Below are positions 4,479-51,162 of a DNA stretch of 54,379 nucleotides, in pieces. Origin of the DNA: an uncultured bacterium (GTDB lineage: Bacteria > Chlamydiota > Chlamydiia > Chlamydiales > SM23-39); assembly GCA_964641775.1 (NCBI GenBank), contig CAZXLK010000002.1, positions 1-54,379 on the forward strand, in the 5' to 3' direction. Each line of letters opens with the position of its first letter. Position 1 is the stretch's first letter. The translations under genes and the position numbers were made by a program. The notes below the pieces were generated by a model that saw nothing but the letters and a program-made list of their open reading frames with translations, was not told where the DNA came from and searched no databases.

Positions 4479-7400
4479 ATGCTCAGGGGGCTTTGTACCT
4501 TTTTCTTCATCATCTTCTCTTCTTTGTATTCTGAAGAACCTACCACAGATACATTCCAAGAGACAGAGACAACTATCGCAAGTGTTGACGAAATAGCTGC
4601 TGCAACATTGATGCTGGCCAAAACCGATTTATCAAGCGATAAAGAGGGCTACACCATCAATTACAATACCGTCTCGATCATTGAATACATCCGTTTTGCA
4701 AGCAAAATCTGCAATTTGAATTTCATTTTCAATGAAGCCGATCTTGATTTTACCGTAACCGTTGTCTCCGATGCCCCCATCACTCCGCAAAATGTGATGG
4801 CGACCCTTTTGCAAGTGCTTAGGATCCACGGCTTGCGTCTTTTAGAGCAAGACAAAAATTTAGTTATCCATAAATCAGCAGATGTTGTTCAAATTGCGCC
4901 CCTTGTCACAGATGGATCCCAAGAAAATAACTTCCCCATTGTGACGCGCGTTTTTCGGCTAAAAGTTGCTAAAGTAGACTCCATTGCAGGTATCATCCGC
5001 CCCATGATCTCGGGCTCTGCCCTTTTGGAAGTCTTGTCTGAGACAAAGCAGATGATTCTTACCGATGTGACTGCCAATGTCGATAAAGTGGCCAGCCTCA
5101 TTCAAATTCTCGATTCGCCGCAAAACCAGTTAGACGTTCGGACGTATACGGCAGTAAATAATAAACCTGAGGCACTTGCTGCACTTGCAGATCAAATCAT
5201 GGCCCCATTTGCCGGGACAAACCCCTTTATTTTAGTCCCCCAGCCAATGACAGGCTCGATTTTCATCGTTTCAACGGGCGATCTGATCGATAAAACCCTA
5301 TCCGTGTTGAAAACGCTCGATGTTGCTCCTAAAAAAGAGATGGTCTCTCAACAACAGCTCAAATCTGAAAATATTTTTGTCTATAAAGCAATGAACCGCT
5401 CCAGCGATGATCTTTTGCACTCGCTGCAAAGCATTGGAGACAATCTGCAAAGATCGGGCATTCCCGAAGGCGATTTGATCACTACGATAGACTCTGCCCG
5501 CTCGATTAAAGAAACCAATTCGATCCTATTTGTCGGATCCACCGATGCAATCACAAAAATAAAAGAATTTTTACTATCTCTTGACATGGCAGGGGCAGAA
5601 GGGGTCCCGGGCAAAATGTCTTATTTTGTCTATAACCCCAAAAATCGAAGCGCACAAGAGATTGATAGCGCCTTAAAGGAAATGGCAGATAACCTAAAAC
5701 ACGTCAAAGGCGAGGAAGATCTTGTCAAAGTGCTTCATAGCGCAAAAATCAATACGACAACAAATACGATCCTTTTTTCCGGCGATGAGAGCCAATTTGG
5801 CAAAGTTCGGGCGCTACTTAGCGATGTCGATGCCAAAACAGAGGAGTCTACAAAGCCCGTTTATTTTATCTACAAGCTGCAAAATGCATCGGGCGATGTT
5901 GTAGAAGAGGAGCTGGAAACAATTGCCAAAGACATGGAAAAAACCGGCGCCGCAAATAAGGACGTTTTAAATGTCATCCACACTCTTCGCTACATCAAAG
6001 AGACGAATTCACTTCTTCTCATGGGAAATTCTGCAGCGGTTGATGAAGTCAAAGAGATGATCGTGGAATACGATTATCCAAGAGGAAATGCTACTGTCAG
6101 CAGCAACTTTTTCATGTATAAACCGCAATACAAAAGCGCAAAAGAGATTGAACATTCCCTGCACGATGTCGCATCGAACTTAAAAGCAGCAGGGCTTGCC
6201 GACCCGTCGCTTTTACAAACCATCGACAAGGTAAAATATGTAGAAACGACCAATTCCTTAATTTTTACCGGAAATGCAGACTCGATCAAAAAAATCCAAA
6301 CCTTGATCCCGGAAATTGACATCCCTCCTAAAGAATCTGCCCAAATCCAGCATGTCGGCAAAACGACATTTCTTCTTTATAAATTGAAAGTAGCAGGCGC
6401 GCCCCAAATTCTTGCAGCTTTGAAAAATATGACCGCTAATCTTCAAAAAACCGGGACCGCCGATAAGAATTTGATCGACACCCTAAATTCAATCAAATAC
6501 ATCAAAGAAACAAATTCGCTTCTTTTCACAGGCGATGAGGAATCTCTGCAAAGAGTGCAGCTTCTCATAGAACAATTCGATGTAACTTCTCTTGCAGCAG
6601 CGCCATCTGCCACCACAACAACAGTTCCGGGAGCAGGACAAGCCAATTTCATCCTTTATACCCCTGTTGCCTTGCCTCCGGACGATCTTGAAAAGCTCGT
6701 GAATGATTTTGCAGAAAATGCCCATGCAAGCGGCTTGAACGATCCTGAGCTTTTTGCAGCGATCGCATCCATGAAGCTAGCGGAATCGACCCATTCGCTG
6801 ATTTTTACAGGCACGCCTAAAGCACTCGATCAAATTCAGCAGCTTCTCAAAAGTTTTGATGTTCCTGCTAATCTGATTACAAAACCCAGTCCTACTGCCC
6901 CATCAGAGCCATCGATCCAAGGGATCGATAACACAAGCTTTATGGTCTATAAACTTCAATTCCATAAAGGCGATGAGATACAAAACGCGCTCAAACAAAT
7001 TGCAAAAGATCTGATCAATAACAATGCCCCGATCAATCAAAACCTTCTCAATTCCATCAATTCCATCCAATGGCTAGAAGTGACAAATTCGATTCTGTCA
7101 TCGGGCGATCAAGAAACACTGACAAGATTGAAGGAACTGATCAAAAATCTCGACATTCCCTTAAAGCAGGTTTTCATTGAAGTTCTTGTTGTTGAAACTT
7201 CTTTGACAAATGCCCTTCTTTTTGGACTCGAGTGGGGAGGCAATTACAAATTCAATAACCGATTTGGAATTAGCTCCTTCAATACGGTTCCCCCTGCGAA
7301 TCCTCAAAGTCCTTTCCCGGATCAGTTTGTCAGCAGATTATCAACCCTTACTCCTCCCAGCGCGCCAACACCTATCGGCAATATTCCTCCCGTTACCGGA

Positions 7401-8129
7401 TTTGATTTGGGCGTGATTGGAGAGGTCATTAAACATAAAGGGGAAACCTTCCTCACTTTGGGCTCTTTATTGAATGCGCTGCAAACCGATAACGAAACGA
7501 CGATCATTACGGCGCCGAAACTCTTAGGTCAAGATGGAAGAACTTCAACCATTTTTTCCGGTGCGAATATCCCTTTCACAGGATCCTTTGTCAACAATAC
7601 AACAAATGGCGCGACGATTTTAACGTCCAATATTGAATATAGAGATATTGGACTAAATCTTACGATTACTCCGGTATTAGGTAATTCCGATATCGTAACT
7701 CTCGATATCGATTTAGATCGATCCCAAACTGCATCCGGCATCACGCAATCCTCTTTGAATTTCCAAAACCAGTCGGCAAACGGGATCATTACAAGCAAAA
7801 CGACGATGCAGACAACGGTCCATGTTCCGGATCGCAATTTCTTAGTCTTAAGCGGCTTTGTGAACAATTCCACCACAAAAACCAAACAAGGAATCCCCTG
7901 CTTAGGCGGTCTTCCAATGATTGGCGCTGCCTTTTCGCAGCAAAATGATACGATTTCCAATCAAAACATCGTCATCTTTTTAAGACCGTTTATCATTAAT
8001 TCGATCGAAGACATGCGAAGAGTGACCTCGGAGCAAGAAGATTTCTTCCGAGATCAAGCCGGCACACCTTTCTTGGAGCATAATTATGACGATGCAGTTG
8101 AGCTCATCAAAACCATCGACGATGAATAG
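4479..8129 (+). CDS. sctC: Type III secretion outer-membrane secretin SctC (CdsC) with an expanded N-domain array
   Basis: 1216 aa with a signal peptide (MLRGLCTFFFIIFSSLYS) and an N0-like region. Nine secretin-N-type modules follow. The C-terminal secretin core reads VFIEVLVVETS...GIPCLGGLPMIGAAFS...IVIFLRPFII. Confidence 0.9.
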   Translation: MLRGLCTFFFIIFSSLYSEEPTTDTFQETETTIASVDEIAAATLMLAKTDLSSDKEGYTINYNTVSIIEYIRFASKICNLNFIFNEADLDFTVTVVSDAPITPQNVMATLLQVLRIHGLRLLEQDKNLVIHKSADVVQIAPLVTDGSQENNFPIVTRVFRLKVAKVDSIAGIIRPMISGSALLEVLSETKQMILTDVTANVDKVASLIQILDSPQNQLDVRTYTAVNNKPEALAALADQIMAPFAGTNPFILVPQPMTGSIFIVSTGDLIDKTLSVLKTLDVAPKKEMVSQQQLKSENIFVYKAMNRSSDDLLHSLQSIGDNLQRSGIPEGDLITTIDSARSIKETNSILFVGSTDAITKIKEFLLSLDMAGAEGVPGKMSYFVYNPKNRSAQEIDSALKEMADNLKHVKGEEDLVKVLHSAKINTTTNTILFSGDESQFGKVRALLSDVDAKTEESTKPVYFIYKLQNASGDVVEEELETIAKDMEKTGAANKDVLNVIHTLRYIKETNSLLLMGNSAAVDEVKEMIVEYDYPRGNATVSSNFFMYKPQYKSAKEIEHSLHDVASNLKAAGLADPSLLQTIDKVKYVETTNSLIFTGNADSIKKIQTLIPEIDIPPKESAQIQHVGKTTFLLYKLKVAGAPQILAALKNMTANLQKTGTADKNLIDTLNSIKYIKETNSLLFTGDEESLQRVQLLIEQFDVTSLAAAPSATTTTVPGAGQANFILYTPVALPPDDLEKLVNDFAENAHASGLNDPELFAAIASMKLAESTHSLIFTGTPKALDQIQQLLKSFDVPANLITKPSPTAPSEPSIQGIDNTSFMVYKLQFHKGDEIQNALKQIAKDLINNNAPINQNLLNSINSIQWLEVTNSILSSGDQETLTRLKELIKNLDIPLKQVFIEVLVVETSLTNALLFGLEWGGNYKFNNRFGISSFNTVPPANPQSPFPDQFVSRLSTLTPPSAPTPIGNIPPVTGFDLGVIGEVIKHKGETFLTLGSLLNALQTDNETTIITAPKLLGQDGRTSTIFSGANIPFTGSFVNNTTNGATILTSNIEYRDIGLNLTITPVLGNSDIVTLDIDLDRSQTASGITQSSLNFQNQSANGIITSKTTMQTTVHVPDRNFLVLSGFVNNSTTKTKQGIPCLGGLPMIGAAFSQQNDTISNQNIVIFLRPFIINSIEDMRRVTSEQEDFFRDQAGTPFLEHNYDDAVELIKTIDDE

Positions 8130-8132
8130 AAT

Positions 8133-8375
8133 ATTTAACCACCGAGAACACCGAGAGCACAGAGATCTTTTTTGCGGAGCAAAAAAGAAAAATTATCTTT
8201 CTTTTCCCTCCCTCGGTGTTCTCGGTGTGCTCGGTGGTTTATTTCTAAAAATGAAAAGAAGATTTAACCACCGAGAACACCGAGAGCACAGAGATCTTTT
8301 TTGCAGAGCAAAAAAGAAAAATTATCTTTCTTTTCTTTCCCTCGGTGTTCTCGGTGTGCTCGGTGGTTTATTTCT
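8133..8375. repeat. Two tandem copies (8133-8246 and 8262-8375) of a 114-bp palindromic element
   Basis: Each copy has an outer arm of 9-mer sub-repeats ACCACCGAG AACACCGAG AGCACAGAG. The centre is a hairpin TCTTTTTTGC-GGA-GCAAAAAAGA (8166-8188 in copy 1). The opposite arm is CTCGGTGTT CTCGGTGTG CTCGGTGGT. The copies differ at only a few positions. Confidence 0.9.
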
Positions 8376-9285
8376 GCTTTCCGGCTGCTACCGGGTGTCG
8401 GATAGCATTGAGCCTCACGTAAGCTGGCAATTGCAAGATCGACATTTACAGGGTTTGAAAACCGCATTTTCTCCTTATAGCGAAGAGGAAAAAAAGGCCG
8501 ATTGGACGAAAGAATGTACCATCGCAACAGGCTTTGCCGAGCAATTGGATTTATACCGGGCGATTTCAACCTATAAACGGGCTGAAATATTAATTCCTCA
8601 CTCAGAGTCAAGACGGCTCCTTGAAATCCAATACGACATCCTCTTTTGCTATTTTTTGGGCAAAAAATATGATGAGGCCATTGAGGTCTTTGAAAAATCG
8701 GAGCTTAGCTTTGTCGACAAGACTTTTCCCGCCTATCGGGATCTTCTATTAGTGCTTTATGAATGTTATAGGGAAATGGACAATTCGGAAAAACAAGAAA
8801 AGATCTATGAGCTCATGGCAAAATCATTTCCCGATACCGCAGAAGTGCTGCAGCTATCCAGAGCCATTCGAGAAGGAGAGCTTGCCTCAGTAGATCTCTT
8901 CGCGGAAGGATTTAATGGCCCTTCTTATTTGAGCAATCTTTTAGATACCTATGCAATGGGAAAAAAGTCCGTCTCTTTTGCCCAAACGCTCAATGCTATT
9001 TTGCCCGGAGCAGGCTACTTGTATATCGGCCAAACCAAATCGGCCTTTACCGCATTTTTTCTCAATAGCTTATTTATAGCGGCAGCTTATGAGTTTTTCC
9101 GTCATGGTCATACTGCCGGAGGAATCATTACTTTAGGATTTGAAGCGGGCTGGTATTTTGGAGGAATTTATGGGGCAGGTGAAGAGGCAAAATACTATAA
9201 TGAAAGACTTTATGAAAGAACTGCAAGCGCATCACTCAATGACCAGAAACTCTTTCCCGTTTTGATGTTGGAGCACACGTTTTGA
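8251..9285 (+). CDS. Putative lipoprotein with TPR-like helical repeats and a C-terminal membrane-embedded region
   Basis: The ORF track starts at 8086 inside the sctC 3' end. I prefer the ATG at 8251, which gives MKRR...LSFLSLGVLGVLGGLFLLSGC with lipobox LSGC. The middle is TPR-like (YRAISTYKRAEILI, FLGKKYDEAIEVFEKS). The C-terminus is Gly/aromatic-rich and hydrophobic (LPGAGYLYIGQ...GFEAGWYFGGIYGAG). The start remains uncertain. Confidence 0.5.
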   Translation: MKRRFNHREHREHRDLFCRAKKKNYLSFLSLGVLGVLGGLFLLSGCYRVSDSIEPHVSWQLQDRHLQGLKTAFSPYSEEEKKADWTKECTIATGFAEQLDLYRAISTYKRAEILIPHSESRRLLEIQYDILFCYFLGKKYDEAIEVFEKSELSFVDKTFPAYRDLLLVLYECYREMDNSEKQEKIYELMAKSFPDTAEVLQLSRAIREGELASVDLFAEGFNGPSYLSNLLDTYAMGKKSVSFAQTLNAILPGAGYLYIGQTKSAFTAFFLNSLFIAAAYEFFRHGHTAGGIITLGFEAGWYFGGIYGAGEEAKYYNERLYERTASASLNDQKLFPVLMLEHTF

Positions 9286-9656
9286 TTTTATTACTCTCAA
9301 CTCTCTTTGGATTTGTAGGATATTTTGAGCCTTGGGGAGAGGATGCAGATCTCAAATTTTCAAGAAAAGAAATTCAAGTTCCTCCTCAACCCTCCATTGC
9401 TGCAAAGATTGCAGATGGGGTCATCCGTTTTCATCAAGAAGTGATTTCCCCTGCTGATGGCCCAAGAAGCCATTTCCGCCCCACCTCTTCTCGTTATATG
9501 CAGCTTGCCATGCAGCGCTATGGCTTCCTTAAAGGCTTCATTATGGGATGCGATCGCCTCCTTCGGGAAAATAATGAAGAATGGGTCTATCAAACGATTA
9601 TGATCGATGGCCAAATCTATAAATTCGACCCGGCAAAGCCCAATAAAACGTTTTAA
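9282..9656 (+). CDS. YidD-like (DUF37 family) protein lacking the conserved cysteines
   Basis: 124 aa, TTG start overlapping the upstream stop (TTGA). VIRFHQEVISPADGPRSHFRPTSSRYMQLAMQRYGFLKGFIMGCDRLLREN aligns with the YidD core LIRxYQxxISPxxGxxCRFxPTCSxYxxxAxxxxGxxKGxxLxxxRxxRCHP. Confidence 0.5.
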   Translation: MILLLSTLFGFVGYFEPWGEDADLKFSRKEIQVPPQPSIAAKIADGVIRFHQEVISPADGPRSHFRPTSSRYMQLAMQRYGFLKGFIMGCDRLLRENNEEWVYQTIMIDGQIYKFDPAKPNKTF

Positions 9657-9663
9657 TCCAATT

Positions 9664-9743
9664 CCCGTGAACGCTTGCGCTTGCGTTACCGTGCCCGTGA
9701 CCGTGACCGATCCCGATACCGTGCCCGATACCGATACCGTTCC
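9664..9743. repeat. Hexamer-phased (CCGNNN)n tract between convergent gene ends
   Basis: CCGTGA ACGCTT GCGCTT GCGTTA CCGTGC CCGTGA CCGTGA CCGATC CCGATA CCGTGC CCGATA CCGATA CCGTTC. It shares GAACG(C/T)TTGCGCTTGCGTTACCG with the elements at 11206 and 43725. Confidence 0.85.
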
Positions 9744-9751
9744 TTAATCAC

Positions 9752-11119
9752 CTAAGACCTCCCATAATCATCCTTCATCCGAACAATATCATCTTCTCCA
9801 AGGTATTCCCCTACTTGAGTTTCGATGAGTTCGAGGGGAATTTTACCGGGATTTGAGACTCGGTGAAGGGCGCCTTTGGGGACATAAATGCTCTCATTTT
9901 CATGGACAAAGGTCTCCTCTTTGCCGATCGTCACTTTGGCAGTGCCTTTGACAATGACCCAATGCTCACTTCGATGAAAGTGCTTTTGCAGGCTCAGAGT
10001 ATGACCCGGCTTTACAGAGATCTTTTTGATTTTGTAGCGATGGTCCAAATCTAAAACGGTATAGGATCCCCAGGGGCGATTCGTTGTAAGATGCTCTTTG
10101 ATTTCGGATCGATTTTCCTCTTTTAGCTTCAGGACAATGTCTTTGACTTTTTGCGACTCATTTTTCTTTGCGATGAAGACAACATCGGGAGTTTCAACAA
10201 TGAGCATATCATCGAGTCCAATCGTAGCGATCAGCCTCTTGCCTCCCAAAATCAAAGAGTTTTTTGTACCTATCCGAATCGTCTCACCAAGCGCTGCATT
10301 GCCATCGCTATCTTTAGGAAGAACATCATAGACGCTATCCCAAGAGCCAACATCGGACCAAAAAAGATCAACGCCCAACACCACCGTTTTTTTCGACTTT
10401 TCCATTATGGCATAATCGATGGAAATATTAGTTAATTTCTCAAAGGGAAGGCTCCCTTCTACAAATTTCTCAAGTTCGGGAAAGTACCTACAAAATGCAT
10501 CAAGCATCGTTTGGATAGAAAAGGCAAACATTCCCGAATTCCAATAGAAATTCCCCTTTGCAATGTATTCTTTTGCCGTTTCCAAATCGGGTTTTTCAAC
10601 AAATTGGAGGGCTTTAAATCCCCCATCAATCGGCTCGCCAGCTTCAATATAGCCATACCCCGTTTCCGGCTGTTTGGGAAGGATCCCAAACGTGACGATC
10701 CAATCCTTTTCTGCTAAATGTAAAGCGCGCTTTACATATTTTCCAAAAAGAGTTTGCGGCTCTAGAATTTGATCGGAAGGAGATACAAATATAGGTTCAT
10801 CCAAAGAAATTCCCCTATCAATTAGAGCCTTTATCCCAAAAGCAATGGCAGGCGCAGTATTTTTTTGAGAAGGCTCAAACAAAATATTTTTCTCCAAATC
10901 AAGTTGCATCTCCTCCAGCTGCTCTTTCAGAATAAAAAAGTATTGCGAATTGGTTAAAAAAAAGATGTCCTCACAAGAGAAATATTCCAGGAGCCGAAAA
11001 ACCGCTTTTTGCAAAAGCGATTCATCGGATCCAATCTTTAAAAACTGTTTAGGATACTCTATTCTAGATACCGGCCAAAGTCGCGTTCCACTTCCGCCGG
11101 CTAATATAAGGGCTTTCAC
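9752..11119 (-). CDS. manC: Bifunctional mannose-1-phosphate guanylyltransferase / mannose-6-phosphate isomerase (type II PMI-GMP)
   Basis: 455 aa, GTG start. N-terminal NTP-transferase motif is LILAGGSGTRLWPVSR..YPKQFL. C-terminal cupin motifs are RPWGSYTVL and QKHFHRSEHWVIVKGTA. Confidence 0.9.
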   Translation of the reverse strand: MKALILAGGSGTRLWPVSRIEYPKQFLKIGSDESLLQKAVFRLLEYFSCEDIFFLTNSQYFFILKEQLEEMQLDLEKNILFEPSQKNTAPAIAFGIKALIDRGISLDEPIFVSPSDQILEPQTLFGKYVKRALHLAEKDWIVTFGILPKQPETGYGYIEAGEPIDGGFKALQFVEKPDLETAKEYIAKGNFYWNSGMFAFSIQTMLDAFCRYFPELEKFVEGSLPFEKLTNISIDYAIMEKSKKTVVLGVDLFWSDVGSWDSVYDVLPKDSDGNAALGETIRIGTKNSLILGGKRLIATIGLDDMLIVETPDVVFIAKKNESQKVKDIVLKLKEENRSEIKEHLTTNRPWGSYTVLDLDHRYKIKKISVKPGHTLSLQKHFHRSEHWVIVKGTAKVTIGKEETFVHENESIYVPKGALHRVSNPGKIPLELIETQVGEYLGEDDIVRMKDDYGRS

Positions 11120-11205
11120 AATTCATTATATTCCTTCGCTCCTTATTAATTACATAATAATGCATGAAGAAAATATTCCTGTCACTATATATCACTTTTT
11201 AATTA

Positions 11206-11287
11206 CCGTGAACGTTTGCGCTTCCACCCCAAAGACGATGCGTCTTCGGGGACCCCGGTGCGTTACCGTTACCGAAAAAACGGAACG
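11206..11287. repeat. Hexamer-family element interrupted by the 33-nt hairpin module (core 11224-11256)
   Basis: CCGTGAACGTTTGCGCTT [CCACCCCAAAGACGATGCGTCTTCGGGGACCCC] GGTGCGTTACCGTTACCGAAAAAACGGAACG. The flanks are contiguous in the copy at 43725. Confidence 0.85.
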
Positions 11288-11302
11288 TTTGATTACACAA
11301 AT

Positions 11303-12091
11303 CTATTCATTTTCCCAATTTACTTTGAAGGATGTTCCATCTTTTTGTAATTCTGTAGGTACCGCTTTGACATAGGATGGGTTATCTTCCATCACCATTT
11401 CATCATTTTGCCAGCCATCATTGTTAATCGTACCATGTATTTTATTGATGACTGCGCTGCAATAATTAAAAGTAACAGTATTAAAATCGGCTAAAGGAAG
11501 TGTGCTTGAAGAAAAAGGGGCTTCGAGAATCCATTCCGCAGAGCTTCTTAAAGCGGCAGTATTCACTGTGTAAAATGAGGGAACAGTATAGGACACATCT
11601 TGGGTCCAATTAGTGATCACTAACTTAAATACTCCATGTCCTTGATAGCCCACTCTTACGCTGATCGCATCGCCAACATTTACGGGAAAACCCCCAATCA
11701 TAAAAGCGCCGCTTGGATACATTTCAAACCAGGCATAATTTTGCTGCGCTCCATTGATCCAATTATGCGATGTTCCTATTTGTTCAACCGTTCCATTAGT
11801 AAATCCATCAATCCCTACCCAAATTGCAGAATAAGTATCGTCTTTTGTGGAAAGAAGAGTGGGAACAATCCAATAACCTGCAGCATAATCCACCGAACCG
11901 TTCACAGGATTCGTTAGATTTTCAGCTGCTACGTATCCACTCCAATTGTTACTATTAACCAAACCGCTATGAGTTGTATAGACTTCTTGTCCATGAATCA
12001 TTGCTCTATGAATCGATACGATATCGCATTCGATCTCCTGCATTGCATAAACACCAACAGTTGCTAAAAGACTTAAAACGATTGTTCTCAT
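11303..12091 (-). CDS. Secreted peptidase family G1 (eqolisin / scytalidoglutamic-type glutamic peptidase) homologue
   Basis: The track start at 12103 is TTG. The ATG at 12091 is preceded by GGAGG and gives the signal peptide MRTIVLSLLATVGVYA. Family motifs are NNWSGYV, SAIWVGIDG, VEQIG (catalytic Gln position), NYAWFEMYP (catalytic Glu position), AEWILEAP and LADFNTVTF. Confidence 0.7.
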   Translation of the reverse strand: MRTIVLSLLATVGVYAMQEIECDIVSIHRAMIHGQEVYTTHSGLVNSNNWSGYVAAENLTNPVNGSVDYAAGYWIVPTLLSTKDDTYSAIWVGIDGFTNGTVEQIGTSHNWINGAQQNYAWFEMYPSGAFMIGGFPVNVGDAISVRVGYQGHGVFKLVITNWTQDVSYTVPSFYTVNTAALRSSAEWILEAPFSSSTLPLADFNTVTFNYCSAVINKIHGTINNDGWQNDEMVMEDNPSYVKAVPTELQKDGTSFKVNWENE

Positions 12092-12157: not shown

Positions 12158-13006
12158 CTACTCTTGAGCTTCCCGAATTTTTAAGAGCATCTTTGCGTGA
12201 AGATGTTTATTGGAAGCGACGACATCGATCATATCGAGAGTTAAAAGATTCAAAGGCTCTCCTTTCCAATCGGTCAAAACTCCACCCGCATTGCGAATCA
12301 TAAGGCTAGCTGCAGCGACATCCCAAGTCCTAAGTCCTGCATGAAATTTGCCGTCAAAGATCCCCGCTGCCACATAAGCGAGATGAAGAACAGCTGTTCC
12401 CAGATTATCGACTTGAGCTCCTGTTTGGATCATTGCATTTTCCACTTCCATGCAATTGAGCGGATTTTCCATCACAGCATAAGGATAGCCTGAGGCAAGA
12501 AGAGCTTTTCCTAATTGATTCGTTAATGAAACCGTAACTAACTCGCCATTGAGATACGTTTCTGTTAAATCTGCAACAAAAAGCTGTTGCAAACAAGGAG
12601 CATAGATCACGCCGCAAACTGGATATCCGTGAAGCAAAAGAGCAATACTAATGCTATAAATAGGAAGTCCTTTGGAATAGTTCTTGCTTCCATCCAATGG
12701 ATCAACGACCCAAATATAATCATTCTCAGGCACACCTTCTGATTTTGTCTCTTCGGCTAAAATTCCATGATTTGGGAACTCATAGCGAAGGATTCGGATG
12801 ATCTCTTTCTCTGCCTTGATATCAGATTCGGTTACTACATTTGCCGCTCCTTTTTTCTCCACGATTTCTTGAGCAGCACCCCTTTTTGCTTCCAATATTT
12901 CTCCTGCAAATACAGCTGCTCGAATCGCGACTTTTGTATAGGTGGCAAACTTTTTCGTACAAGACGGCAAAGCAGGAGTTGTAAAACACACTGTTGCTAC
13001 TGACAT
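12158..13006 (-). CDS. suhB: Inositol monophosphatase family protein
   Basis: 282 aa. IMPase motifs are WVVDPLDGSKNY and WDVAAASLMIRNAGG. Confidence 0.85.
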   Translation of the reverse strand: MSVATVCFTTPALPSCTKKFATYTKVAIRAAVFAGEILEAKRGAAQEIVEKKGAANVVTESDIKAEKEIIRILRYEFPNHGILAEETKSEGVPENDYIWVVDPLDGSKNYSKGLPIYSISIALLLHGYPVCGVIYAPCLQQLFVADLTETYLNGELVTVSLTNQLGKALLASGYPYAVMENPLNCMEVENAMIQTGAQVDNLGTAVLHLAYVAAGIFDGKFHAGLRTWDVAAASLMIRNAGGVLTDWKGEPLNLLTLDMIDVVASNKHLHAKMLLKIREAQE

Positions 13007-27938: not shown

Positions 27939-28334
27939 TTAAAGCCGTTGACACCGTAATATATAGGCTTTTTTTATAATGAAACCAAACTTTTCTGAAA
28001 GCGGTTCAATTGAAAAATCTTTTGGAGATTCTTTAACTCCGCCATTAGTAAGAGTACAGGCTTCTTGTAAAAACGAAACAACTGGATCAGTATTATCAAG
28101 AATTACTATCCGTGAAAGCTGAAGAAGCTCCTCTGTACTTAAAGCAACTTGAATTTTAGAAATCACCTTTGAGTAAGCATTTTTATCCGCAGAACTAAGC
28201 CAGGAAGCTGAGGCTACGACATCCCATTTTTCCAATGAATCTTCTCTAAGAAAAAGCGCGAAGAGCACAATGGCTCCATTTTTTTCCTCAAGAAACTGGA
28301 CAACAGATTTGAGCTTTTCCAAAATCTCTTTCAT
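27939..28334 (-). CDS. Hypothetical protein, partner of the HEPN gene (possibly a degenerate minimal-nucleotidyltransferase-like fold)
   Basis: 131 aa. The ATG overlaps the HEPN gene stop (ATGA). GAIVLFALFLREDSLEKWDVVASASW is laid out like the MNT motif hhLFGSxARGxxxxxSDxDLhV, but GS and DxD are not conserved. Confidence 0.5.
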   Translation of the reverse strand: MKEILEKLKSVVQFLEEKNGAIVLFALFLREDSLEKWDVVASASWLSSADKNAYSKVISKIQVALSTEELLQLSRIVILDNTDPVVSFLQEACTLTNGGVKESPKDFSIEPLSEKFGFIIKKAYILRCQRL

Positions 28335-28726
28335 AATTTTTTCAGTAAAACCTCTACAGAATCTAGCAACAACTTCACACTTTTATTCGTTTGTTTCTGT
28401 GAAGAATAGCGCATTTCAGGGTCCCAAGACCTAACAATAGACCATTCAGCAAACACTTCACCTTCTTTAATTTCGTGTTCAATCCCTGAAAGATGTAGCA
28501 GCATGTCCAAGTCATGCGTTTTGAAAGATTTTAACCCTTCAAATTCATTTTTTGTATTTGGATAACCTTTCCATCGTAAGGTTTCGCATATCCTTTTTTT
28601 TAAAGCTAACTCTATCGCATAACCTATAGTATATCTAGCCCAATCCAAACGCCCAGAATCAAATAAAAGCTTAGCATCTTCTATTCGTTGTTTAGAAAGA
28701 GCTTGCAATTCTTCTACCGTAATCAA
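28331..28726 (-). CDS. HEPN-domain protein
   Basis: 131 aa, TTG start (uncertain). DAKLLFDSGRLDWARYTIGYAIELALKKRI...FKTHDLDMLLHLSG...WDPEMRY fits the HEPN (PF05168-like) helical pattern. The Rx4-6H position reads K-S-F-K-T-H. Confidence 0.65.
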   Translation of the reverse strand: MITVEELQALSKQRIEDAKLLFDSGRLDWARYTIGYAIELALKKRICETLRWKGYPNTKNEFEGLKSFKTHDLDMLLHLSGIEHEIKEGEVFAEWSIVRSWDPEMRYSSQKQTNKSVKLLLDSVEVLLKKL

Positions 28727-28925: not shown

Positions 28926-29576
28926 ATTGCTTGGAGTGGGACCCCCTCGCGCAGCGCTTCGCGCTTGCTGCCGGGGCAGCGATCCTCTCCGGTTTTTCGA
29001 AACGAAAAACATCGGAGAGGATTCGAGTCCCACACGCGATGCACTTAAGGTGAACACTATGTTCATGCGGGGACAGGGCTTCGCCCTTTCCCCTGCACCC
29101 CTTTCCCACAGGCGTGCGCTTTGCCACGCCTGGGACGCCCCAGATCCGCCTACCCGCCAGGGTAAGCGAGGCAACTGCTTGCCTCGCGGGGCGAGATCTG
29201 GCTGAGGGCGTTGTTTTGCCTATGCAAAACCGCCCGATGCGCGGAGCTGCCGGGCCGGCGATCCTCTCCGGTTTTTCGAAACGAAAAACATCGGAGAGGA
29301 TTCGAGTCCCACACGCGATGCACTTAAGGTGAACACTATGTTCATGCGGGGACAGGGCTTCGCCCTTTCCCCTGCACCCCTTTCCCACAGGCGTGCGCTT
29401 TGCCACGCCTGGGACCCCCTCGCGCAGCGCTTCGCGCTTGCTGCCGGGGCGGCGATCCTCTCCGGTTTTGCTAAAAGCAAAACATCGGAGAGGATTCGAG
29501 TCCCACACGCGATGCACTTAAGGTGCATCGCTTCCGAGCGATTTTTTGCTCGGCAAAAAATTGCTCGGAGTGGGAC
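28926..29576. mobile_element. Putative decayed or non-autonomous element integrated at the 3' end of tRNA-Leu, bounded by 17-nt direct repeats
   Basis: ATTGCTTGGAGTGGGAC (28926-28942) versus ATTGCTCGGAGTGGGAC (29560-29576, the tRNA 3' end). The distal copy restores perfect acceptor pairing. No integrase or credible ORF lies between the repeats. Confidence 0.5.
28937..29526. repeat. GC-rich hairpin-dense repeat array with 279-bp period
   Basis: Block 28968-29136 is nearly identical to 29247-29415. Block 28937-29052 recurs at 29411-29526. Hairpins include GCTGCC-GG-GGCAGC, ATCCTCTCCG...CGGAGAGGAT enclosing TTTTTCG-AAA-CGAAAAA, TGAACA-CTA-TGTTCA, GGGGACAGGG-CTTCG-CCCTTTCCCC and GGCGTG-N8-CACGCC. 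Confidence 0.9.
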
Positions 29577-29644
29577 TCGAACCCACACGGGGTTGCCCCC
29601 AAGGGATTTTAAGTCCCTAGTGTCTACCATTCCACCATCCAAGC
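29562..29644 (-). tRNA. tRNA-Leu (anticodon UAA)
   Basis: 83 nt, folded by hand. Acceptor is GCTTGGA/TCCGAGC with one U-G pair, and the D stem is 3 bp. The anticodon stem AGGGA/TCCCT carries loop CTTAAAA. The long variable arm is GGGG-GCAA-CCCC and the T arm is GTGGG-TTCGAGT-CCCAC. The discriminator is A and CCA is not encoded. Confidence 0.9.
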
Positions 29645-29683
29645 AAGAAAAGGGGTTCATTTTATCGAACCCCTGATTTGGAA

Positions 29684-42848: not shown

Positions 42849-43496
42849 TTATTTCCCCTTCTTCTTTAACTTTTTCGATTCGCTAATGAAGACAGTGCCG
42901 CTTCTTGAACCCGGGACTGCCCCTTCAACAAGGAGATAATTTCCTTTCACTGCAACAACCCTTAAATTCTGAACGGTCTGACGATCGCCGCCCATTCGAG
43001 ACGGCCTCTTGCCGCCGGGGAAGCATCTGCCCGGCGTGGTTCTCATGCCAGTGGAACCCATATGTCTATGGAAACCCGAGCCATGAGCTGCAGGGCCACC
43101 GGCCATACCATGAAGCTTGATAACTCCTTGATATCCTTTTCCTTTAGTTACCCCTTCGACATCGACGAAAGAGACTTCTGAAAAAAGACTTGCATCGATT
43201 TGCTGACCGACTTGGAATGCATCGACATCCTCAATTCTCGATTCCCGAACAACCCGGCAAGGCGCTACTTGAGCTTTTGCAAAGTGCCCCTTTAAAGGCT
43301 TGCTCATTTTTTTTGCTTTCGGCTCTGTGAGAGGCAATCCAGCAAGCTGAACGCCATTGTAACCGTGCGTTTCTTTGCGCTTGATCCCAAGGACTGTGTT
43401 TGGCCCAGTCCAAATCACTGTGCAAACCACCAGCTTCCCTTCTTGATCAAAGACTTGAGCCATCCCTTTTTTTTGGCCAATCAATGTCAGCGACAT
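42849..43496 (-). CDS. rplC: 50S ribosomal protein L3
   Basis: 215 aa, TKGKGYQGVIKLHGMAGGPAAHGS. First gene of the cluster; no rpsJ lies upstream. Confidence 0.95.
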   Translation of the reverse strand: MSLTLIGQKKGMAQVFDQEGKLVVCTVIWTGPNTVLGIKRKETHGYNGVQLAGLPLTEPKAKKMSKPLKGHFAKAQVAPCRVVRESRIEDVDAFQVGQQIDASLFSEVSFVDVEGVTKGKGYQGVIKLHGMAGGPAAHGSGFHRHMGSTGMRTTPGRCFPGGKRPSRMGGDRQTVQNLRVVAVKGNYLLVEGAVPGSRSGTVFISESKKLKKKGK

Positions 43497-43724
43497 ATCG
43501 TTTTCCTATTTCTATTCCTTCTCAAGATCTGCTCTGCGAGCAAGCGATAAATGCTATCAAATCGAGCTATTTAACTCAATTTTTCATTTTCCGCCTTAGG
43601 ACTCGCGCTTAACCCAAGGCCCAAGGCCGGGGTGGCATTCGAGAGTGAGGGATCGTTCGCAAGAACGATGTTTTTAATACTGGCTCAAGATCATAAGGAA
43701 ACACTGAATTTTAAGCAAGCGACC

Positions 43725-43868
43725 CGTGAACGTGAACGTTTGCGCTTGCGTTACCGTACCGTTTCCCGAAAAACGTGAACGGGTAAGGAACGTGAACGGG
43801 TCGGGCACGCAAGCGCCAGGGGTCCCCGAAGACGCATCGTCTTTGGGGTGGAAGCGTTCACGTTCACG
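43725..43868. repeat. 144-bp composite palindromic element of the hexamer family carrying the 33-nt hairpin module (core 43819-43851)
   Basis: The outer arms CGTGAACGTGAACG (43725-43738) and CGTTCACGTTCACG (43855-43868) are exact reverse complements. Internal GCGCTTGCG / CGCAAGCGC pairing is present. The core is GGGGTCCCCGAAGACGCATCGTCTTTGGGGTGG. Confidence 0.9.
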
Positions 43869-43875
43869 AATGCTG

Positions 43876-49240: not shown

Positions 49241-49485
49241 ACAAGTACCTCGTCACAAACGAGTCTTTTTTTCGGGTTCAATTCAATATTAAAACAACAA
49301 AAAATTAACCCGAAAGTCCATTTCGACGCAACTTTTTCTTGAAGATACCGAAATGATTTGAAGAATCGGGAATATGTCAAGGAGGCGCCCCGATTTTTGT
49401 CCAAGATTTCTGGCGCCGAAGCAGCTAAACTTAAAAAGTTTAGCGATGCAGGCGGGACAAAAAGCGGTGGCTGACCGACGCAGCC

Positions 49486-49518
49486 GGGGTCCCCGATGAC
49501 GCATCGTCATTGGGGTGG
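49486..49518. repeat. Solo copy of the 33-nt hairpin module overlapping the lnt stop codon
   Basis: GGGGTCCCCGATGACGCATCGTCATTGGGGTGG. The stem is CCCCGATGACG / CGTCATTGGGG. The lnt stop TGA is at 49507-49509 (minus strand). Confidence 0.85.
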
Positions 49519-51162
49519 CGTCGACAGAAACCGATTCTTCAGATTATTTCGGTATAAGTAAAGGAAGAAACTGAGGATGCTAATGGTTAGGATACACGCA
49601 TCTCCCCAAATGGTGTATAAAGTTGCCTCGGAAAAAACGGGAACGGTTAAAAAAAGCGCACCTTTTTTTCCCGGCGCTTTCATTTGGACCACCCGGCCAT
49701 AAGAATCGATGCCGGAAGTGATACCCATATTGCTCGCCCTTAAAAGGTAAACTCCATTTTCTACTGCGCGAAGTCTTGCATGATCAAAATGCTGCCGTGC
49801 GAGTTTTGAATTGGGAAACCAAACATCATTGGAAATGCTCACCAAAAGCTCAGCCCCTTTTTTTCTTAAATCCCGAACAAGCTCTGAATACATTTCCTCT
49901 AAACAAATAGGAGTCCCGATCGGAACATGGGATTGAAAAATTCTCGCTTCTTGTCCTACATCAAAAGACTCTTTGATTCCAAAAGATTTTTCTAAAAAAT
50001 TCACTACCCAGTCAAATTGAGAAAAGGGAATATATTCTCCAACAGGGGTTAAAATCCTTTTGTCATACCGCTCCATTTCTAGACTGCCGGGCTTAAATAA
50101 AAAGGCCGCATTCGTCCATTCATCTTCGCCATTATAATAATCGAGCCCTGTAATGAGATCGGCACCAAAATGATTGGCAAGGGCTTTTGCAAAATAGACA
50201 TTGGTGGCCATCCAATGTGTTTCTCCATTCTGCTCATAAGGCAAAGCAAATGGAGCCTTTAGGGGAGGCAAGGCATCAATGCTGCCGAAATAATCTTTCC
50301 ATGTTTTTTCGGCGATCGGCACGGGGCAAAATGCAATATCTGTTCGATAAGGAAACGCAGCCTCCGGCAAGACGATGAGATCCACTTTTTTAGTAAGGCA
50401 ATCCCAAACCCTTTGCCATTGAGCGAGCGGCGGGATAAAGGATAGAGGCTTTTGGCAATCCCGATTTTTTTCTTCTACCAATAAAGAGGTATCGACAAGA
50501 GCTACCGTTATCTTCTTTTCTACTTTGCTAGGATGTTTTATATGAATGAGCCCATAGCCGTAAGGAAATAGGACAAGAAAGAGCCAAACACACCCATTTT
50601 TCCAGTTTGGTTTGACGAGGACCCTTAACCCAAAAAAATTGGTCCCTATGACCCAAAATGTAAGACCATAGACCCCAAAAATTGCGGCAAGCTGCATCGA
50701 ATAGTCACTGCATGCAAGACTGAGTCCTGCCGGATTCCAGGTATATCCTGTAAAAACATAAAGGCGTGTCCATTCCAAAAGGGTAAAAGCGCCTGCCACC
50801 CCAAGACCTTGCAAAACTTTTGCCTTTTTATCTACGATCATGGAAACGAGTGCAAATTGAACACCCACTAATAAAAGTAGTCCAAGATAGACAATCAAAA
50901 TCATTGGACCCATATAACGGGTCTCGGTCATCCAGGAAAGCTGGACGCTATGTGCTGCCACGAACCAAAAAAGACACAATATAAACCGATGTTTTTTTTG
51001 ATCCAGCTCCAACATAGAGCGCCAAAAAAGGGCATATCCCAAGGCGGAAGCGAGTATCCCACAGACAGGAATCCACGCCGGCTGCCCAAAGGCAACCAGA
51101 AAAAAACTGACAAAGATATTAATAATCTTCAGGGTATTCCCTTTCCCTACCATGTGCACCAT
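49507..51162 (-). CDS. lnt: Apolipoprotein N-acyltransferase
   Basis: N-terminal multi-TMS region plus a CN-hydrolase domain (DLIVLPEAAFP). The track start at 51189 is TTG; ATG candidates are at 51162 and 51153. Position equals CT534. Confidence 0.85.
   Translation of the reverse strand: MVHMVGKGNTLKIINIFVSFFLVAFGQPAWIPVCGILASALGYALFWRSMLELDQKKHRFILCLFWFVAAHSVQLSWMTETRYMGPMILIVYLGLLLLVGVQFALVSMIVDKKAKVLQGLGVAGAFTLLEWTRLYVFTGYTWNPAGLSLACSDYSMQLAAIFGVYGLTFWVIGTNFFGLRVLVKPNWKNGCVWLFLVLFPYGYGLIHIKHPSKVEKKITVALVDTSLLVEEKNRDCQKPLSFIPPLAQWQRVWDCLTKKVDLIVLPEAAFPYRTDIAFCPVPIAEKTWKDYFGSIDALPPLKAPFALPYEQNGETHWMATNVYFAKALANHFGADLITGLDYYNGEDEWTNAAFLFKPGSLEMERYDKRILTPVGEYIPFSQFDWVVNFLEKSFGIKESFDVGQEARIFQSHVPIGTPICLEEMYSELVRDLRKKGAELLVSISNDVWFPNSKLARQHFDHARLRAVENGVYLLRASNMGITSGIDSYGRVVQMKAPGKKGALFLTVPVFSEATLYTIWGDACILTISILSFFLYLYRNNLKNRFLSTPPQ

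Follow-up and report, generated by a model that had tools for sequence, protein, structure and literature searches.

The window, as we call the whole 54,379-nucleotide stretch analyzed here, carries a tRNA-Leu(UAA) gene on its minus strand (Table 1). The upstream neighbors of the tRNA are an open reading frame (ORF) of 229 amino acids and the genes for GAPDH, rplQ and rpoA, while a HEPN gene and its partner ORF lie downstream. An exact-protein look-up of the GAPDH, L17 and 229-aa proteins returned no recorded match. The HEPN operon was covered by two Logan contigs (SRR9179562 and SRR9179563, 99.8% identical), both of which ended before the array described below. The tRNA gene does not encode CCA, and its acceptor stem (GCTTGGA/TCCGAGC) includes a U4-G69 wobble pair; the same stem was found in relatives.

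Between the tRNA and the HEPN operon lies an insert of about 620 to 634 bp, bounded by a 17-nt direct repeat. The copy joined to the tRNA, the proximal X (ATTGCTCGGAGTGGGAC), starts in the last bases of the T-loop, runs through the 3' strands of T-stem and acceptor and extends 2 nucleotides beyond the discriminator; it differs by one mismatch from the distal X (ATTGCTTGGAGTGGGAC). As originally predicted, the repeat is present at both borders, and a search of the 54 kb that permitted 3 mismatches found no further match. The first 6 to 7 nucleotides of the distal X (GTCCCA) overlap the end of GAGGGGGTCCCA, a conserved motif of the K module that also occurs at locus L231, despite the different T-stem of the tRNA there (labels of this form denote the tRNA loci compared, and a bare L denotes a hairpin part of the unit).

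The original prediction further took the distal copy, TCCAAGC, for the native tRNA end pushed outward by the integration, as it would give a U4-A69 pair where the tRNA-joined copy gives U4-G69. This argument fails because the wobble state is native in most relatives, including insert-free ones; the distal A also occurs in the element of another species (L302).

The claim that the insert is rich in GC and in hairpins was borne out. GC content was 0.56 to 0.67 over positions 28926 to 29450 compared to 0.425 for the whole window, with an abrupt jump at both borders, and both strands of the insert folded far better than shuffled sequence (z = −13.4 and −15.8). The segment was likewise gene-less as described: mechanical ORFs exist between the repeats, but none is credible, none reached the Pfam cut-off, and there is no integrase. 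ARAGORN reported the tRNA-Leu alone in the window, with no tmRNA and no second tRNA, and no reverse-transcriptase ORF was seen among the ORFs listed for it. A simple scan of the window detected no promoter between the tRNA and the HEPN operon, and no further copy of any insert block was found elsewhere in the 54 kb.

Table 1. Features of the tRNA-Leu(UAA) locus and its array, ordered from the tRNA outward
Feature	Position	Strand	Basis
tRNA-Leu(UAA) gene	29562..29644	minus	ARAGORN (29561-29645); Rfam tRNA model, 57.7 bits (29562-29644)
Proximal X: tRNA 3' end, one copy of the 17-nt direct repeat	29560..29576	minus	repeat search
Hairpin L (trailer), AUUUUUUGC-CGA-GCAAAAAAU, directly past the discriminator	29541..29561	minus	repeat search, folding
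X' part 1: anti-acceptor, inverted complement of the acceptor 3' strand	29533..29540	minus	inverted repeat
hp2: 9-bp hairpin, GCGATGCAC-loop-GTGCATCGC	29509..29531	minus	sequence, folding, homologues
X' part 2: anti-T, inverted complement of T-loop and T-stem 3' strand	29495..29506	minus	inverted repeat
Unit 3 hpA: long hairpin, TTTTGCT/AGCAAAA variant	29455..29495	minus	inverted repeats, homologues
Unit 3 K core: TCGCCGCCCCGGCAG-hpB-GCGAGGGGGTCCCA	29410..29455	minus	covariance model R1 (66.9 bits), alignment, covariation
M block copy 2: hpC (CAGGCGUG..CACGCCUG), hpD (GGGGAAAGGGC-GAA-GCCCUGUCCCC), hpE	29332..29409	minus	direct repeat
Unit 2: half hp2 and anti-T (29301-29331), hpA (29261-29301), interrupted K variant	29135..29331	minus	repeats (D1 78%)
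M block copy 1	29053..29134	minus	98% identical to M block copy 2
Unit 1: half hp2 and anti-T (29022-29052), hpA (28982-29022; TTTTTCG/CGAAAAA variant)	28982..29052	minus	repeats
Unit 1 K core	28937..28982	minus	covariance model R1, 63.5 bits
Distal X: second tRNA 3'-end copy, TCCAAGC for TCCGAGC; far border of the element	28926..28942	minus	repeat search

Three units of a conserved DNA element without genes, arranged in tandem and partly rearranged, make up the segment. Hairpin L is the apex of a long palindrome (29533-29569, 17-nt arms, 94% complementary) and occupies the position that a canonical terminator with A-tract, GC-stem and T-tract holds in other family members, although in the window it has no U-run. 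The anti-acceptor, whose base facing the discriminator is a mismatch, and the anti-T together form X', and hp2 sits precisely where they meet; upon folding, the two parts of X' and the tRNA 3' end close a three-way junction. The T-loop motif GGATTCGAGTCCCAC was found three times, inverted relative to the tRNA T-arm as had been noted. The conserved inner part of the unit 3 hpA reads CGAUG-UUUUGC..GCAAAA-C-CG, and the adjoining K core reads as a pseudo-copy, now diverged, of the 3' half of the tRNA. In unit 2 the K variant is split by an extra hairpin block of about 105 nt (block C, 29141-29245), which is similar, in one orientation or the other, to the hpA region of other loci.

The predicted duplication, with a period of 279 bp, was recovered: positions 28967-29140 and 29246-29419 are 98% identical, and positions 28937-29052 and 29410-29525 are 96% identical. 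The two hpA variants, TTTTTCG..CGAAAAA and TTTTGCT..AGCAAAA, are separated by four substitutions that amount to two compensatory pair exchanges, and these account for four of the five differences between the two window copies. This part of the original prediction was confirmed, and helices covary in further copies of the family as well.

Units behind tRNA-Leu and tRNA-Ser in other genomes

The same architecture recurs in many environmental chlamydiae and was present behind tRNA-Leu(UAA) in about 20 of approximately 102 chlamydial species genomes. This count combines the 16 of 102 chlamydial tRNA-Leu(UAA) loci in which an inverted copy of the acceptor lies no more than 120 nt from the end of the tRNA with additions from motif and covariance-model searches. 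The architecture was also present behind tRNA-Ser(GGA) in five metagenomic contigs (L349, L351/L374, L353, L362 and L372), in which hp2, hpA and K are as in the Leu-linked copies and X and X' match tRNA-Ser. Overall, the family comprises about 25 independent assemblies or genomes, including megabase-scale contigs and chromosome-labelled records. What had been pictured as a unique captured insert or a randomly decayed remnant is instead a conserved family behind two tRNA genes.

Across about 1.1 Mb of related loci, all motif and model hits on tRNA-bearing contigs lay downstream of tRNA-Leu or tRNA-Ser and on the same strand, and orientation relative to the tRNA was fixed in all members; two further hits fell on a short contig without a tRNA (L358). 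The element was found behind none of roughly 85 tRNAs of other kinds. Among about 100 non-chlamydial tRNA-Leu loci, which came from a scan with a very general tRNA pattern, we found two variants (L130 and L107) and nothing more. Some mixing of Leu- and Ser-linked copies is hinted at: the Leu-linked L248 is 82% identical to the Ser-linked L353 compared to 76% to the Leu-linked window unit, the hp2 stem of the window is identical in both of these loci, and CGATGTTTTTCGTTTCGAAAAACCG is identical in the window and L353. M blocks homologous to those of the window occur in L255 and L231.

The closest relatives by upstream synteny (73 to 76% nucleotide identity), counted as the four with sequence downstream of the tRNA (L260, L254, L269 and L216), lack the element, and relative to them the segment is an insertion, as predicted. 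No relative offered an exact empty site sharing the far flank, because that flank is not conserved. Neither a filled and empty pair with a conserved far flank nor an excised circle was seen.

The alignments show a common unit of about 150 to 280 bp with the order X, L, X' split by hp2, hpA, K and X again. X runs from about T-loop position 57 of the tRNA gene to 1 to 7 nt beyond the discriminator, and 17- to 22-nt X repeats at the borders were also found in L203, L245, L313, L279, L349 and L372. X' is split at the junction of T-stem and acceptor, and hp2 lies at exactly that junction in every member. Within K lie CCCC, the 3' strand of the anticodon stem, a variable arm that is elongated (hpB) and GAGGGG, which resembles the 5' strand of the T-stem; the TTCGA of the T-loop is missing. 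X and X' vary with the local tRNA; the modules hp2, hpA and K, in contrast, recur at different tRNA loci and in different species. A claim that X' is better conserved than the distal X was dropped, as the data were mixed.

The three-way junction adopted the same fold in all 12 sequences tested, and some of its nucleotides are conserved in sequence. In hp2, measured on the related hp2 class, pairing was 99.2%, with compensatory changes in 4 of 9 pairs and G-U in 1 of 126 cells; 7 of 11 pairs of hpB showed compensatory changes. Arrays differ in what they repeat. In L238 and L372 the full unit including the L hairpin recurs, and in L238 the L of every unit is a canonical terminator; no anti-acceptor is present in the inner units of the window, L203 and L245. 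Inner units of arrays share mutations, indicating that they arose by local duplication and not by repeated integration.

Database searches and rejected identities

The element was previously undescribed, and no described class matches it. The original prediction had said as much, and the Rfam search that it proposed returned the tRNA model alone for the window and six related loci (Rfam 15), other hits lying far below their gathering scores. Nor was such an element described in the literature searched, and the complete insert had no BLAST match among plasmids and phages. An exact 26-mer and 20-mer of the unit occurred nowhere in viral contigs or the metagenome collection; in genome representatives they hit one Terriglobia contig, which we counted as chance because it carries no tRNA and shows no further similarity. 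Two gapped core patterns searched against viral contigs gave no hit and two chance hits, respectively, and about 49 of the 57 hits of a metagenome scan were chance matches in GC-rich contigs.

Several known identities were rejected on specific features. A group II intron was dismissed as Rfam gave no domain V/VI hit, a retron or diversity-generating retroelement (DGR) for want of a reverse-transcriptase ORF, and a tmRNA or second tRNA on the ARAGORN result. A tRNA primer-binding site would include the complement to CCA, which is absent. A full-length diverged tRNA paralogue does not fit either, the anti-T following the T-loop complement and not the anticodon arm. Composite repeat blocks of 116 to 174 nt with a 279-bp period and without spacers are unlike a CRISPR array. 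The sequences that begin and end the stretch between the X copies (ATTTTTTGC... and ...GCGAGGGG) do not form inverted repeats, and the duplicated segment is 17 to 22 nt of tRNA sequence, unlike the short fixed-length target duplication of a MITE.

Competing explanations

We favor, at a probability of roughly one half, a miniature non-autonomous integrative cassette that is specific for tRNA 3' ends, acts as DNA and has been amplified in tandem; the originally proposed non-autonomous integrative element or DNA cruciforms thus remains the best reading. Such a cassette would consist of essentially nothing but a site-specific att site. It would insert by recombination inside the T-loop or 3' end of the tRNA gene, supply a replacement tRNA 3' end together with a terminator-like hairpin and leave the second X at the far border. 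The mobilizing recombinase would be encoded elsewhere, local multiplication would proceed by tandem duplication or accretion, and the helices would act as single-stranded DNA hairpins or cruciforms and not as RNA. The comparison of genomes shows the patchy species distribution and the tandem arrays of units. The cassette is favored by the confinement of the family to sites behind tRNA-Leu and tRNA-Ser, the modules shared between these two targets, the insertion polymorphism, the tRNA-derived border of L277 described below, the DNA-like behavior of the helices and the lack of matches to known families. Against the cassette stands that no recombinase or transposase gene was recognized in or beside any member: none was seen among 112 ORFs listed for the 5 kb downstream of the tRNA at 24 member loci, of which we inspected the first residues by eye and read the 10 longest in full. 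Moreover, ordinary double-strand att recombination does not need X'. The integrase islands at this tRNA without X', hp2 and K, the single occurrence within the 54 kb, the missing excised circle and filled/empty pair, and the local duplication of inner units also count against it. The element may also have been inherited vertically with many losses and have undergone concerted evolution between both tRNA loci.

A more specific form of the integrative cassette, which we regard as doubtful, would give X' a role. In it, gene-less cassettes of about 150 to 280 bp would home to the T-loop of class II tRNAs (Leu-UAA and Ser-GGA) as folded single-stranded DNA. Pairing of X with X' would restore the target tRNA end as a duplex, hp2 would serve as a strand-marking extra-helical arm and K as the other arm of the site, and a recombinase of the host or encoded elsewhere would exchange strands at the foot of the folded structure, much as at integron attC sites or the attP of CTX phage but with a tRNA gene for primary site. 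Retargeting would occur by re-templating X and X' from a new tRNA. Helices with almost exclusively Watson-Crick pairs on both strands, and a flipped hairpin, are indirect hints of folded single-strand recombination.

A structured noncoding RNA is an unlikely alternative. The units would be transcribed with or after the tRNA, and X'-K-X would fold into a tRNA-like minihelix whose acceptor stem and T-stem cap a K domain. Processing by RNase P, RNase Z and the CCA-adding enzyme would yield either a counterpart of the rtT RNA of the Escherichia coli tyrT repeats or a tRNA mimic having identity elements in common with the class II tRNA beside it. Both host tRNAs are indeed class II tRNAs, whose synthetases ignore the anticodon. 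The fixed orientation, the conserved helices with compensatory changes and the sequence-conserved junction nucleotides would fit, and read-through transcription is plausible in the window, since its L lacks a U-run and no promoter was found before the HEPN operon. In addition, the tRNA-sense strand has about twice as many GAA triloops as its complement. The GCGAAGC motif, a stable DNA mini-hairpin (PMC13037366), occurred 14 times on the tRNA-sense strand and 7 times on the other, a bias that we treat as weak because tandem copies inflate the counts.

Other features are difficult to reconcile with an RNA, and we consider the structured-RNA array that the original prediction had offered to be disfavored. 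Not only is G-U nearly absent from hp2, but G-U pairs also make up only 0 to 2 of about 40 pairs in 7 of 9 core units, and the folding energies of the two strands are similar. Both orientations of hpB are found and can even be combined in one array: the hpB of unit 3 in L372 is the exact reverse complement of that in units 1 and 2. In many members a strong intrinsic terminator separates the tRNA from the remainder of the element, and in several, L238 among them, each unit has one. The inner units of the window, L203 and L245 cannot form the minihelix because they have no anti-acceptor, and in three loci with differing X copies (L312, L231 and L009) X' matches the upstream tRNA end and not its own downstream X. 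The lack of an Rfam match points the same way.

More unlikely still is a passive scar, in which the X copies and K would be attL/attR partial tRNAs left over from ordinary islands after repeated integration and deletion at a hotspot tRNA, with no mobility or function of their own. The tRNA is a hotspot: a motif screen placed a tyrosine integrase right behind it in seven other loci, islands of 3.7 kb (L004) and 1.4 kb (L007) lie between repeats of about 55 nt taken from the 3' half of the tRNA, and in L003 a 16/17 repeat is located 3.3 kb downstream. K derives from a tRNA, and next to a 2-kb cargo segment in L277 lies a distal partial tRNA that combines a true tRNA 3' half with K; events of this kind are known to leave partial tRNAs dispersed over islands (bioRxiv 10.1101/2020.12.28.424599). 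Toxin-antitoxin or defense-type genes often lie 3' of the array, HEPN in the window and, judged from their sequences, MNT/HepT-like, AbiE-like and Fic-like ORFs elsewhere. However, common hp2, hpA and K modules with covarying helices, in about 25 genomes and behind two tRNA genes, are not what random scars would leave. The integrase-bearing islands at the same tRNA have different arms and no X', hp2 or K, the Ser-linked copies have tRNA-Ser on one side and housekeeping genes such as nrdR on the other without any island, and the inverted copy X' is left unexplained.

We find it very unlikely that the array grew from a post-tRNA terminator hairpin that was extended by template switching over the tRNA 3' end and then expanded as a minisatellite, with neither mobility nor function. 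A small AT-rich hairpin directly past the discriminator is common among relatives without the element (for example, L003 and L006), and L011 has an unrelated array with three inverted acceptor copies. The concentration of four of five differences in two base pairs is what templated correction could yield, the flipped hairpin within one array would fit, and the mutations shared among array units are as expected of tandem duplication. This growth would nevertheless leave unexplained the near-identical hp2 and hpA behind two tRNA genes in different species, the same hp2 junction in every member and the K derived from a tRNA half. Finally, a chimeric assembly joining foreign GC-rich DNA to the tRNA, suggested by the sharp GC jump at both borders and by relatives' contigs that end at or inside such arrays (L002, L222, L294 and L358), is barely credible given about 25 independent assemblies, megabase contigs and chromosome-labelled records among them, and borders that are precise tRNA-derived repeats.

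If the favored integrative cassette is real, it would be the smallest kind of site-specific integrative element so far seen, an attachment-site-only cassette parasitizing the tRNA genes of obligate intracellular bacteria, which are commonly thought to be poor in mobile DNA. The built-in inverted target copy and the modules shared between two tRNAs raise the question of how a gene-less element matches guide-like segments to a new target. In practical terms, the arrays break short-read assemblies at tRNA-Leu and mark an integration hotspot carrying toxin-antitoxin and defense genes. Were the RNA alternative true, the units would represent a new RNA family that mimics tRNA and is tied to class II tRNAs.

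Comparison with known systems

Non-autonomous att-flanked integrative elements (cis-mobilizable elements, CIMEs) and the partial-tRNA att remnants of tRNA-targeting islands such as P4-like islands and tycheposons (bioRxiv 10.1101/2020.12.28.424599) resemble the element in several respects: the insert lies between direct repeats of the tRNA 3' end, the tRNA-joined copy keeps the gene intact, copies accumulate in tandem at a hotspot with no internal recombinase, and a diverged partial tRNA, here K, corresponds to one attP arm. Judged as a tRNA-targeting element, the family shows border repeats with an intact tRNA and presence/absence polymorphism but has no internal integrase. In contrast to these islands, the element is 10 to 100 times smaller and gene-free, has conserved covarying hairpins and a hairpin-split inverted target copy, and uses the same modules at two tRNAs, with no parent element or integrase found.

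Integron cassettes with their folded attC sites and the folded single-stranded attP of CTX phage share with the element arrays of palindrome-separated units, outer boxes that repeat the core of the primary site once directly and once inverted, a structure conserved more than its sequence, an extra-helical feature on one arm and a unit boundary at the foot of the hairpin. Unlike integrons, the element has no intI or attI beside the array and no cassette ORF. Its borders read GAGGGG followed by GTCCCAC or CG followed by GACTCC and not GTTRRRY/RYYYAAC, its primary site is the tRNA T-loop, whose GTTCGAG is incompatible with GTTRRRY, and its repeated core measures about 17 to 22 nt compared to 7 nt.

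The 178-bp repeats distal to E. coli tyrT and their rtT RNA were reportedly described by Egan and Landy in 1978 and by Bosl and Kersten in 1991. They too lie in tandem directly 3' of a tRNA, contain the last 19 or so nucleotides of the tRNA in each unit and close with a fractional copy that is the tRNA-end repeat. They lack an inverted tRNA-end copy and hairpin-dense GC-rich modules, however, and are known at one tRNA locus, whereas the element occupies two tRNA genes. Rfam includes an rtT family, which had no hit in the window or the related loci searched.

REP/BIME sequences, Rickettsia palindromic elements and mitochondrial GC clusters are likewise GC-rich imperfect intergenic palindromes after the 3' ends of genes, with clustered hairpins in alternating arrangement and structures at the DNA level. 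REPs are 20 to 40 bp long and dispersed in tens to hundreds of copies, whereas the window contained no other copy and the hits in related loci, on tRNA-bearing contigs, lay solely behind tRNA-Leu or tRNA-Ser. The element, in contrast, is composite, bound to two tRNA genes and includes target-derived sequence.

The insert behind tRNA-Leu(UAA)

The window contains a single tRNA gene, tRNA-Leu(UAA), and the 17-mer over its 3' end recurs once, with one mismatch, at the far border of a hairpin array; no further match with up to three mismatches was found in the 54 kb. The direct repeat claimed by the original prediction was therefore confirmed, but it is not purely a tRNA-end repeat, because GAGGGGGTCCCA is a motif of the element family and part of the 17-mer thus belongs to the repeat unit. 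The 617 bp between the two copies have a GC content of 0.56 to 0.67, compared with 0.425 window-wide, and the fold of either strand is much more stable than that of shuffled sequence (z = -13.4 and -15.8). An Rfam search of the window matched the tRNA only. The prediction also held for the block repeats within the insert, the two compensatory base-pair exchanges between copies, the three inverted T-loop/T-stem motifs and the lack of a credible ORF, since only mechanical ORFs span the insert and none reached the Pfam cut-off.

On the tRNA strand, hairpin L is followed by X', an inverted complement of the tRNA 3'-end copy (X) that is split by hairpin hp2 into an anti-acceptor and an anti-T. In the predicted fold, these parts form a three-way junction with the tRNA's own 3' end. 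After anti-T come a long hairpin, hpA, and a core, K, composed of TCGCCGCCCCGGCAG, hairpin hpB and GCGAGGGGGTCCCA. Next come two further repeats of a three-hairpin block (M) with half of hp2, anti-T, hpA and K. An additional hairpin block (C) is found in the middle copy, and the distal tRNA-end copy closes the array.

Two ORFs lie just beyond the distal repeat. The first encodes a HEPN-domain protein (Pfam, 26.2 bits), the second matched no family, and together they are probably a toxin-antitoxin pair. In L245 and L250 the arrays are followed by ORFs that resemble MNT/HepT pairs in sequence, and near-identical copies of the HEPN ORF pair occur in Logan contigs of SRR9179562 and SRR9179563. Elsewhere in the window, the central hairpin TTTTTTGCNGAGCAAAAAA of an intergenic palindrome resembles the L hairpin TTTTTTGCTCGGCAAAAAA. 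Five other short stretches reach a GC content of at least 0.56 in this 42% GC window, and none has sequence in common with the insert.

Features of the window and of comparison loci (L numbers)
Feature	Position	Strand	Remarks
tRNA-Leu(UAA)	29562-29644	minus	
17-mer over tRNA 3' end	29560-29576		
17-mer, second copy	28926-28942		one mismatch
L	29541-29561	read on tRNA strand	small hairpin right 3' of discriminator
Anti-acceptor	29533-29539	read on tRNA strand	exact complement of acceptor 3' strand
hp2	29509-29531	read on tRNA strand	9-bp hairpin
Anti-T	29495-29506	read on tRNA strand	complement of T-loop and T-stem 3' strand
Two overlapping 131-aa ORFs	27939-28726	minus	
Intergenic palindrome TTTAACCACCGAGAACACCGAGAGCACAGAGATC..GGTGTTCTCGGTGTGCTCGGTGGTTTA	8130-8370		long, imperfect; two tandem copies, period ~129 bp
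Other GC-rich stretches	826-1000, 22901-23050, 42901-43125, 43701-43875, 49376-49525		
L372, three-unit array	10346-10695		behind tRNA-Ser
L004, island	7020-10800		integrase-less; AbiE-like look
L007, island	9950-11450		integrase-less; Bro-N-like look
L003, island	~3.3 kb past tRNA		integrase-less
L235, L241, L295, CTGGGCCACT..GTGGGTCAGTG	about 30-110 nt past tRNA		
L011, unrelated hairpin array	12160-12560		behind tRNA-Leu
L130, variant	directly after tRNA-Leu(UAA)		33% GC; hpA inner motif kept, CGATGTTTTT..AAAAACCG
L107, variant	directly after tRNA-Leu(UAA)		Peribacteria; inverted copy unsplit

Conserved helices: RNA or DNA

The element clearly maintains its helices. In hp2, pairing reaches 99.2% and four of nine pairs show changes on both sides, a level of covariation reached by 0 of 500 shuffles, and hpB has compensatory changes in 7 of 11 pairs. 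G-U pairs are nearly absent (1 of 126 cells in hp2), and the folding energies of the two strands are similar. The hpB loop is GAA or TTC across the family, and in the L372 array units 1 and 2 have one version of hpB and unit 3 its exact reverse complement, a flip in place. Moreover, a canonical terminator separates the tRNA from the rest of the element in several members (one per unit in L238). DNA palindromes fit better than a strand-specific RNA because G-U pairs are scarce, the strands fold alike, hpB flips and terminators precede the rest, and we regard a tRNA-like processed RNA as unlikely. GCGAAGC, known to form a mini-hairpin of very high stability in DNA (PMC13037366), occurs on the sense strand at twice the frequency of the other strand, a count inflated by tandem copies.

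Distribution behind two tRNA genes

In related Chlamydiota loci anchored on GAPDH, the position of tRNA-Leu(UAA) is kept. The element is absent from the window's closest relatives, as judged by upstream synteny. The U4-G69 wobble had been taken as the mark of a grafted foreign tRNA end; this is refuted, and the wobble is native because the TCCGAGC end is found in the insert-less closest relatives (L260, L254, L269 and L216) and the acceptor stem GCTTGGA/TCCGAGC is common to the tRNAs of L001, L002, L003, L004, L006 and L011.

The gene is an integration hotspot. A tyrosine integrase directly follows the tRNA in seven further loci, and ~55-nt repeats of the tRNA 3' half bound islands in L004 (3.7 kb) and L007 (1.4 kb). 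The repeats of the integrase-less islands begin in the anticodon loop. A passive scar left by ordinary islands is a still less likely origin of the element, since the integrase islands at this tRNA have different arms. The ~55-nt-repeat islands (L004, L007 and L003) differ from the element in att type. The tyrosine-integrase islands L235, L241 and L295 have a motif in common between tRNA-Leu and int, CTGGGCCACT..GTGGGTCAGTG, also present in L004 and L007, which probably represents arm-type integrase sites. In L005, a complete chlamydial chromosome, a homopolymer pair (GGGACCCCCCCCCAAAAAAAAA) lies 10 nt past tRNA-Leu.

Scanning with the chlamydial tRNA-Leu 5' sequence yielded about 119 loci, 102 with enough downstream sequence, and 16 of these 102 have an inverted acceptor copy within 120 nt of the tRNA end. 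All 12 sequences examined adopt the same three-way junction fold, and because the arms match the tRNA of the respective genome, their sequences vary. Further members, identified with motifs and covariance models, are L229, L238, L248, L255, L264, L277, L279 and L287. Many members have a second tRNA 3'-end copy at the far end (perfect in L203, L245 and L313), and several are arrays: L203 has six units, L238 four and L245 three. Outside Chlamydiota, variants occur in just two (L130 and L107) of about 100 tRNA-Leu loci, both laid out as tRNA end, hairpin, inverted tRNA end, structured block and perfect 17-nt tRNA-end copy. The contigs of L002, L222, L294 and L358 stop precisely at the tRNA end or within the array, so the element is probably more frequent than counts from short-read MAGs suggest. 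The incompletely covered literature that we searched yielded no description of it.

A degenerate K-core pattern gave 57 matches in metagenome contigs, most of them attributable to chance in GC-rich DNA. Eight contigs of low GC content appeared genuine, and the element was confirmed in seven (the eighth being L358). In five (L349, L351/L374, L353, L362 and L372) it lies behind tRNA-Ser(GGA) rather than tRNA-Leu; their phylum is inferred from module identity with chlamydial loci only. In these copies the direct repeat, anti-acceptor and anti-T fit tRNA-Ser, whereas the modules hp2, hpA and K are shared with Leu-linked copies. The window and L353 agree at every position of the 25-nt inner hpA segment, and the hp2 stem is identical in the window, L353 and L248. 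Leu-linked L248 is 82% identical to Ser-linked L353, compared with 76% to the Leu-linked window unit. Ser-linked copies sit between the tRNA and housekeeping genes (e.g., nrdR), outside islands.

A candidate integrative cassette and the origin of K

The best-supported reading, to which we assign a probability of about 0.5, is a miniature, gene-less, site-specific integrative cassette. Such a cassette would swap the tRNA 3' end for its own copy, supply a hairpin or terminator after the tRNA, leave a second tRNA-end copy at its far border and multiply its units locally. Its distribution is patchy, and at both tRNA genes X and X' are matched to the target. Inner array units have mutations in common, which points to array growth by duplication rather than repeated integration. 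Among ORFs listed within 5 kb downstream in 24 member loci, no recombinase was recognized. Like the RNA and scar explanations, palindrome growth intrinsic to the locus accounts for part of the data and fails on other points, and it is the least probable of the three. The unrelated L011 array, a 55-nt-arm palindrome including the acceptor 3' strand followed by three copies of AAAACTCGTGCYCGRAGC spaced 121 bp, may represent the same phenomenon arisen independently; AAAACTCGTGCYCGRAGC contains the acceptor 3' strand as inverted complement.

In L277, a 2-kb segment behind the tRNA terminates in a partial tRNA whose first part is a genuine tRNA-Leu 3' half (GACTTAAAATCCCCTGG.AGCAA), whose middle is K (GCGC..GCGC..CGAGAGGGGG) and whose end is TCCCGCTCCGAGCA. 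When K was aligned to the tRNA of each genome, its CCCC corresponded to the anticodon-stem 3' strand, GG(C/T/G)AG..hpB to the elongated variable arm and GAGGGG to the T-stem 5' strand, and the T-loop TTCGA was absent. Because of these correspondences and the L277 hybrid, K and X together are a diverged pseudo 3' half of the tRNA.

In the boldest and less probable reading, pairing of X with X' would restore a duplex target within a folded single strand, by analogy with integron attC and CTX attP, in which a duplex target is likewise rebuilt. K plus X, in turn, resembles one arm of the attP of tRNA-targeting elements.
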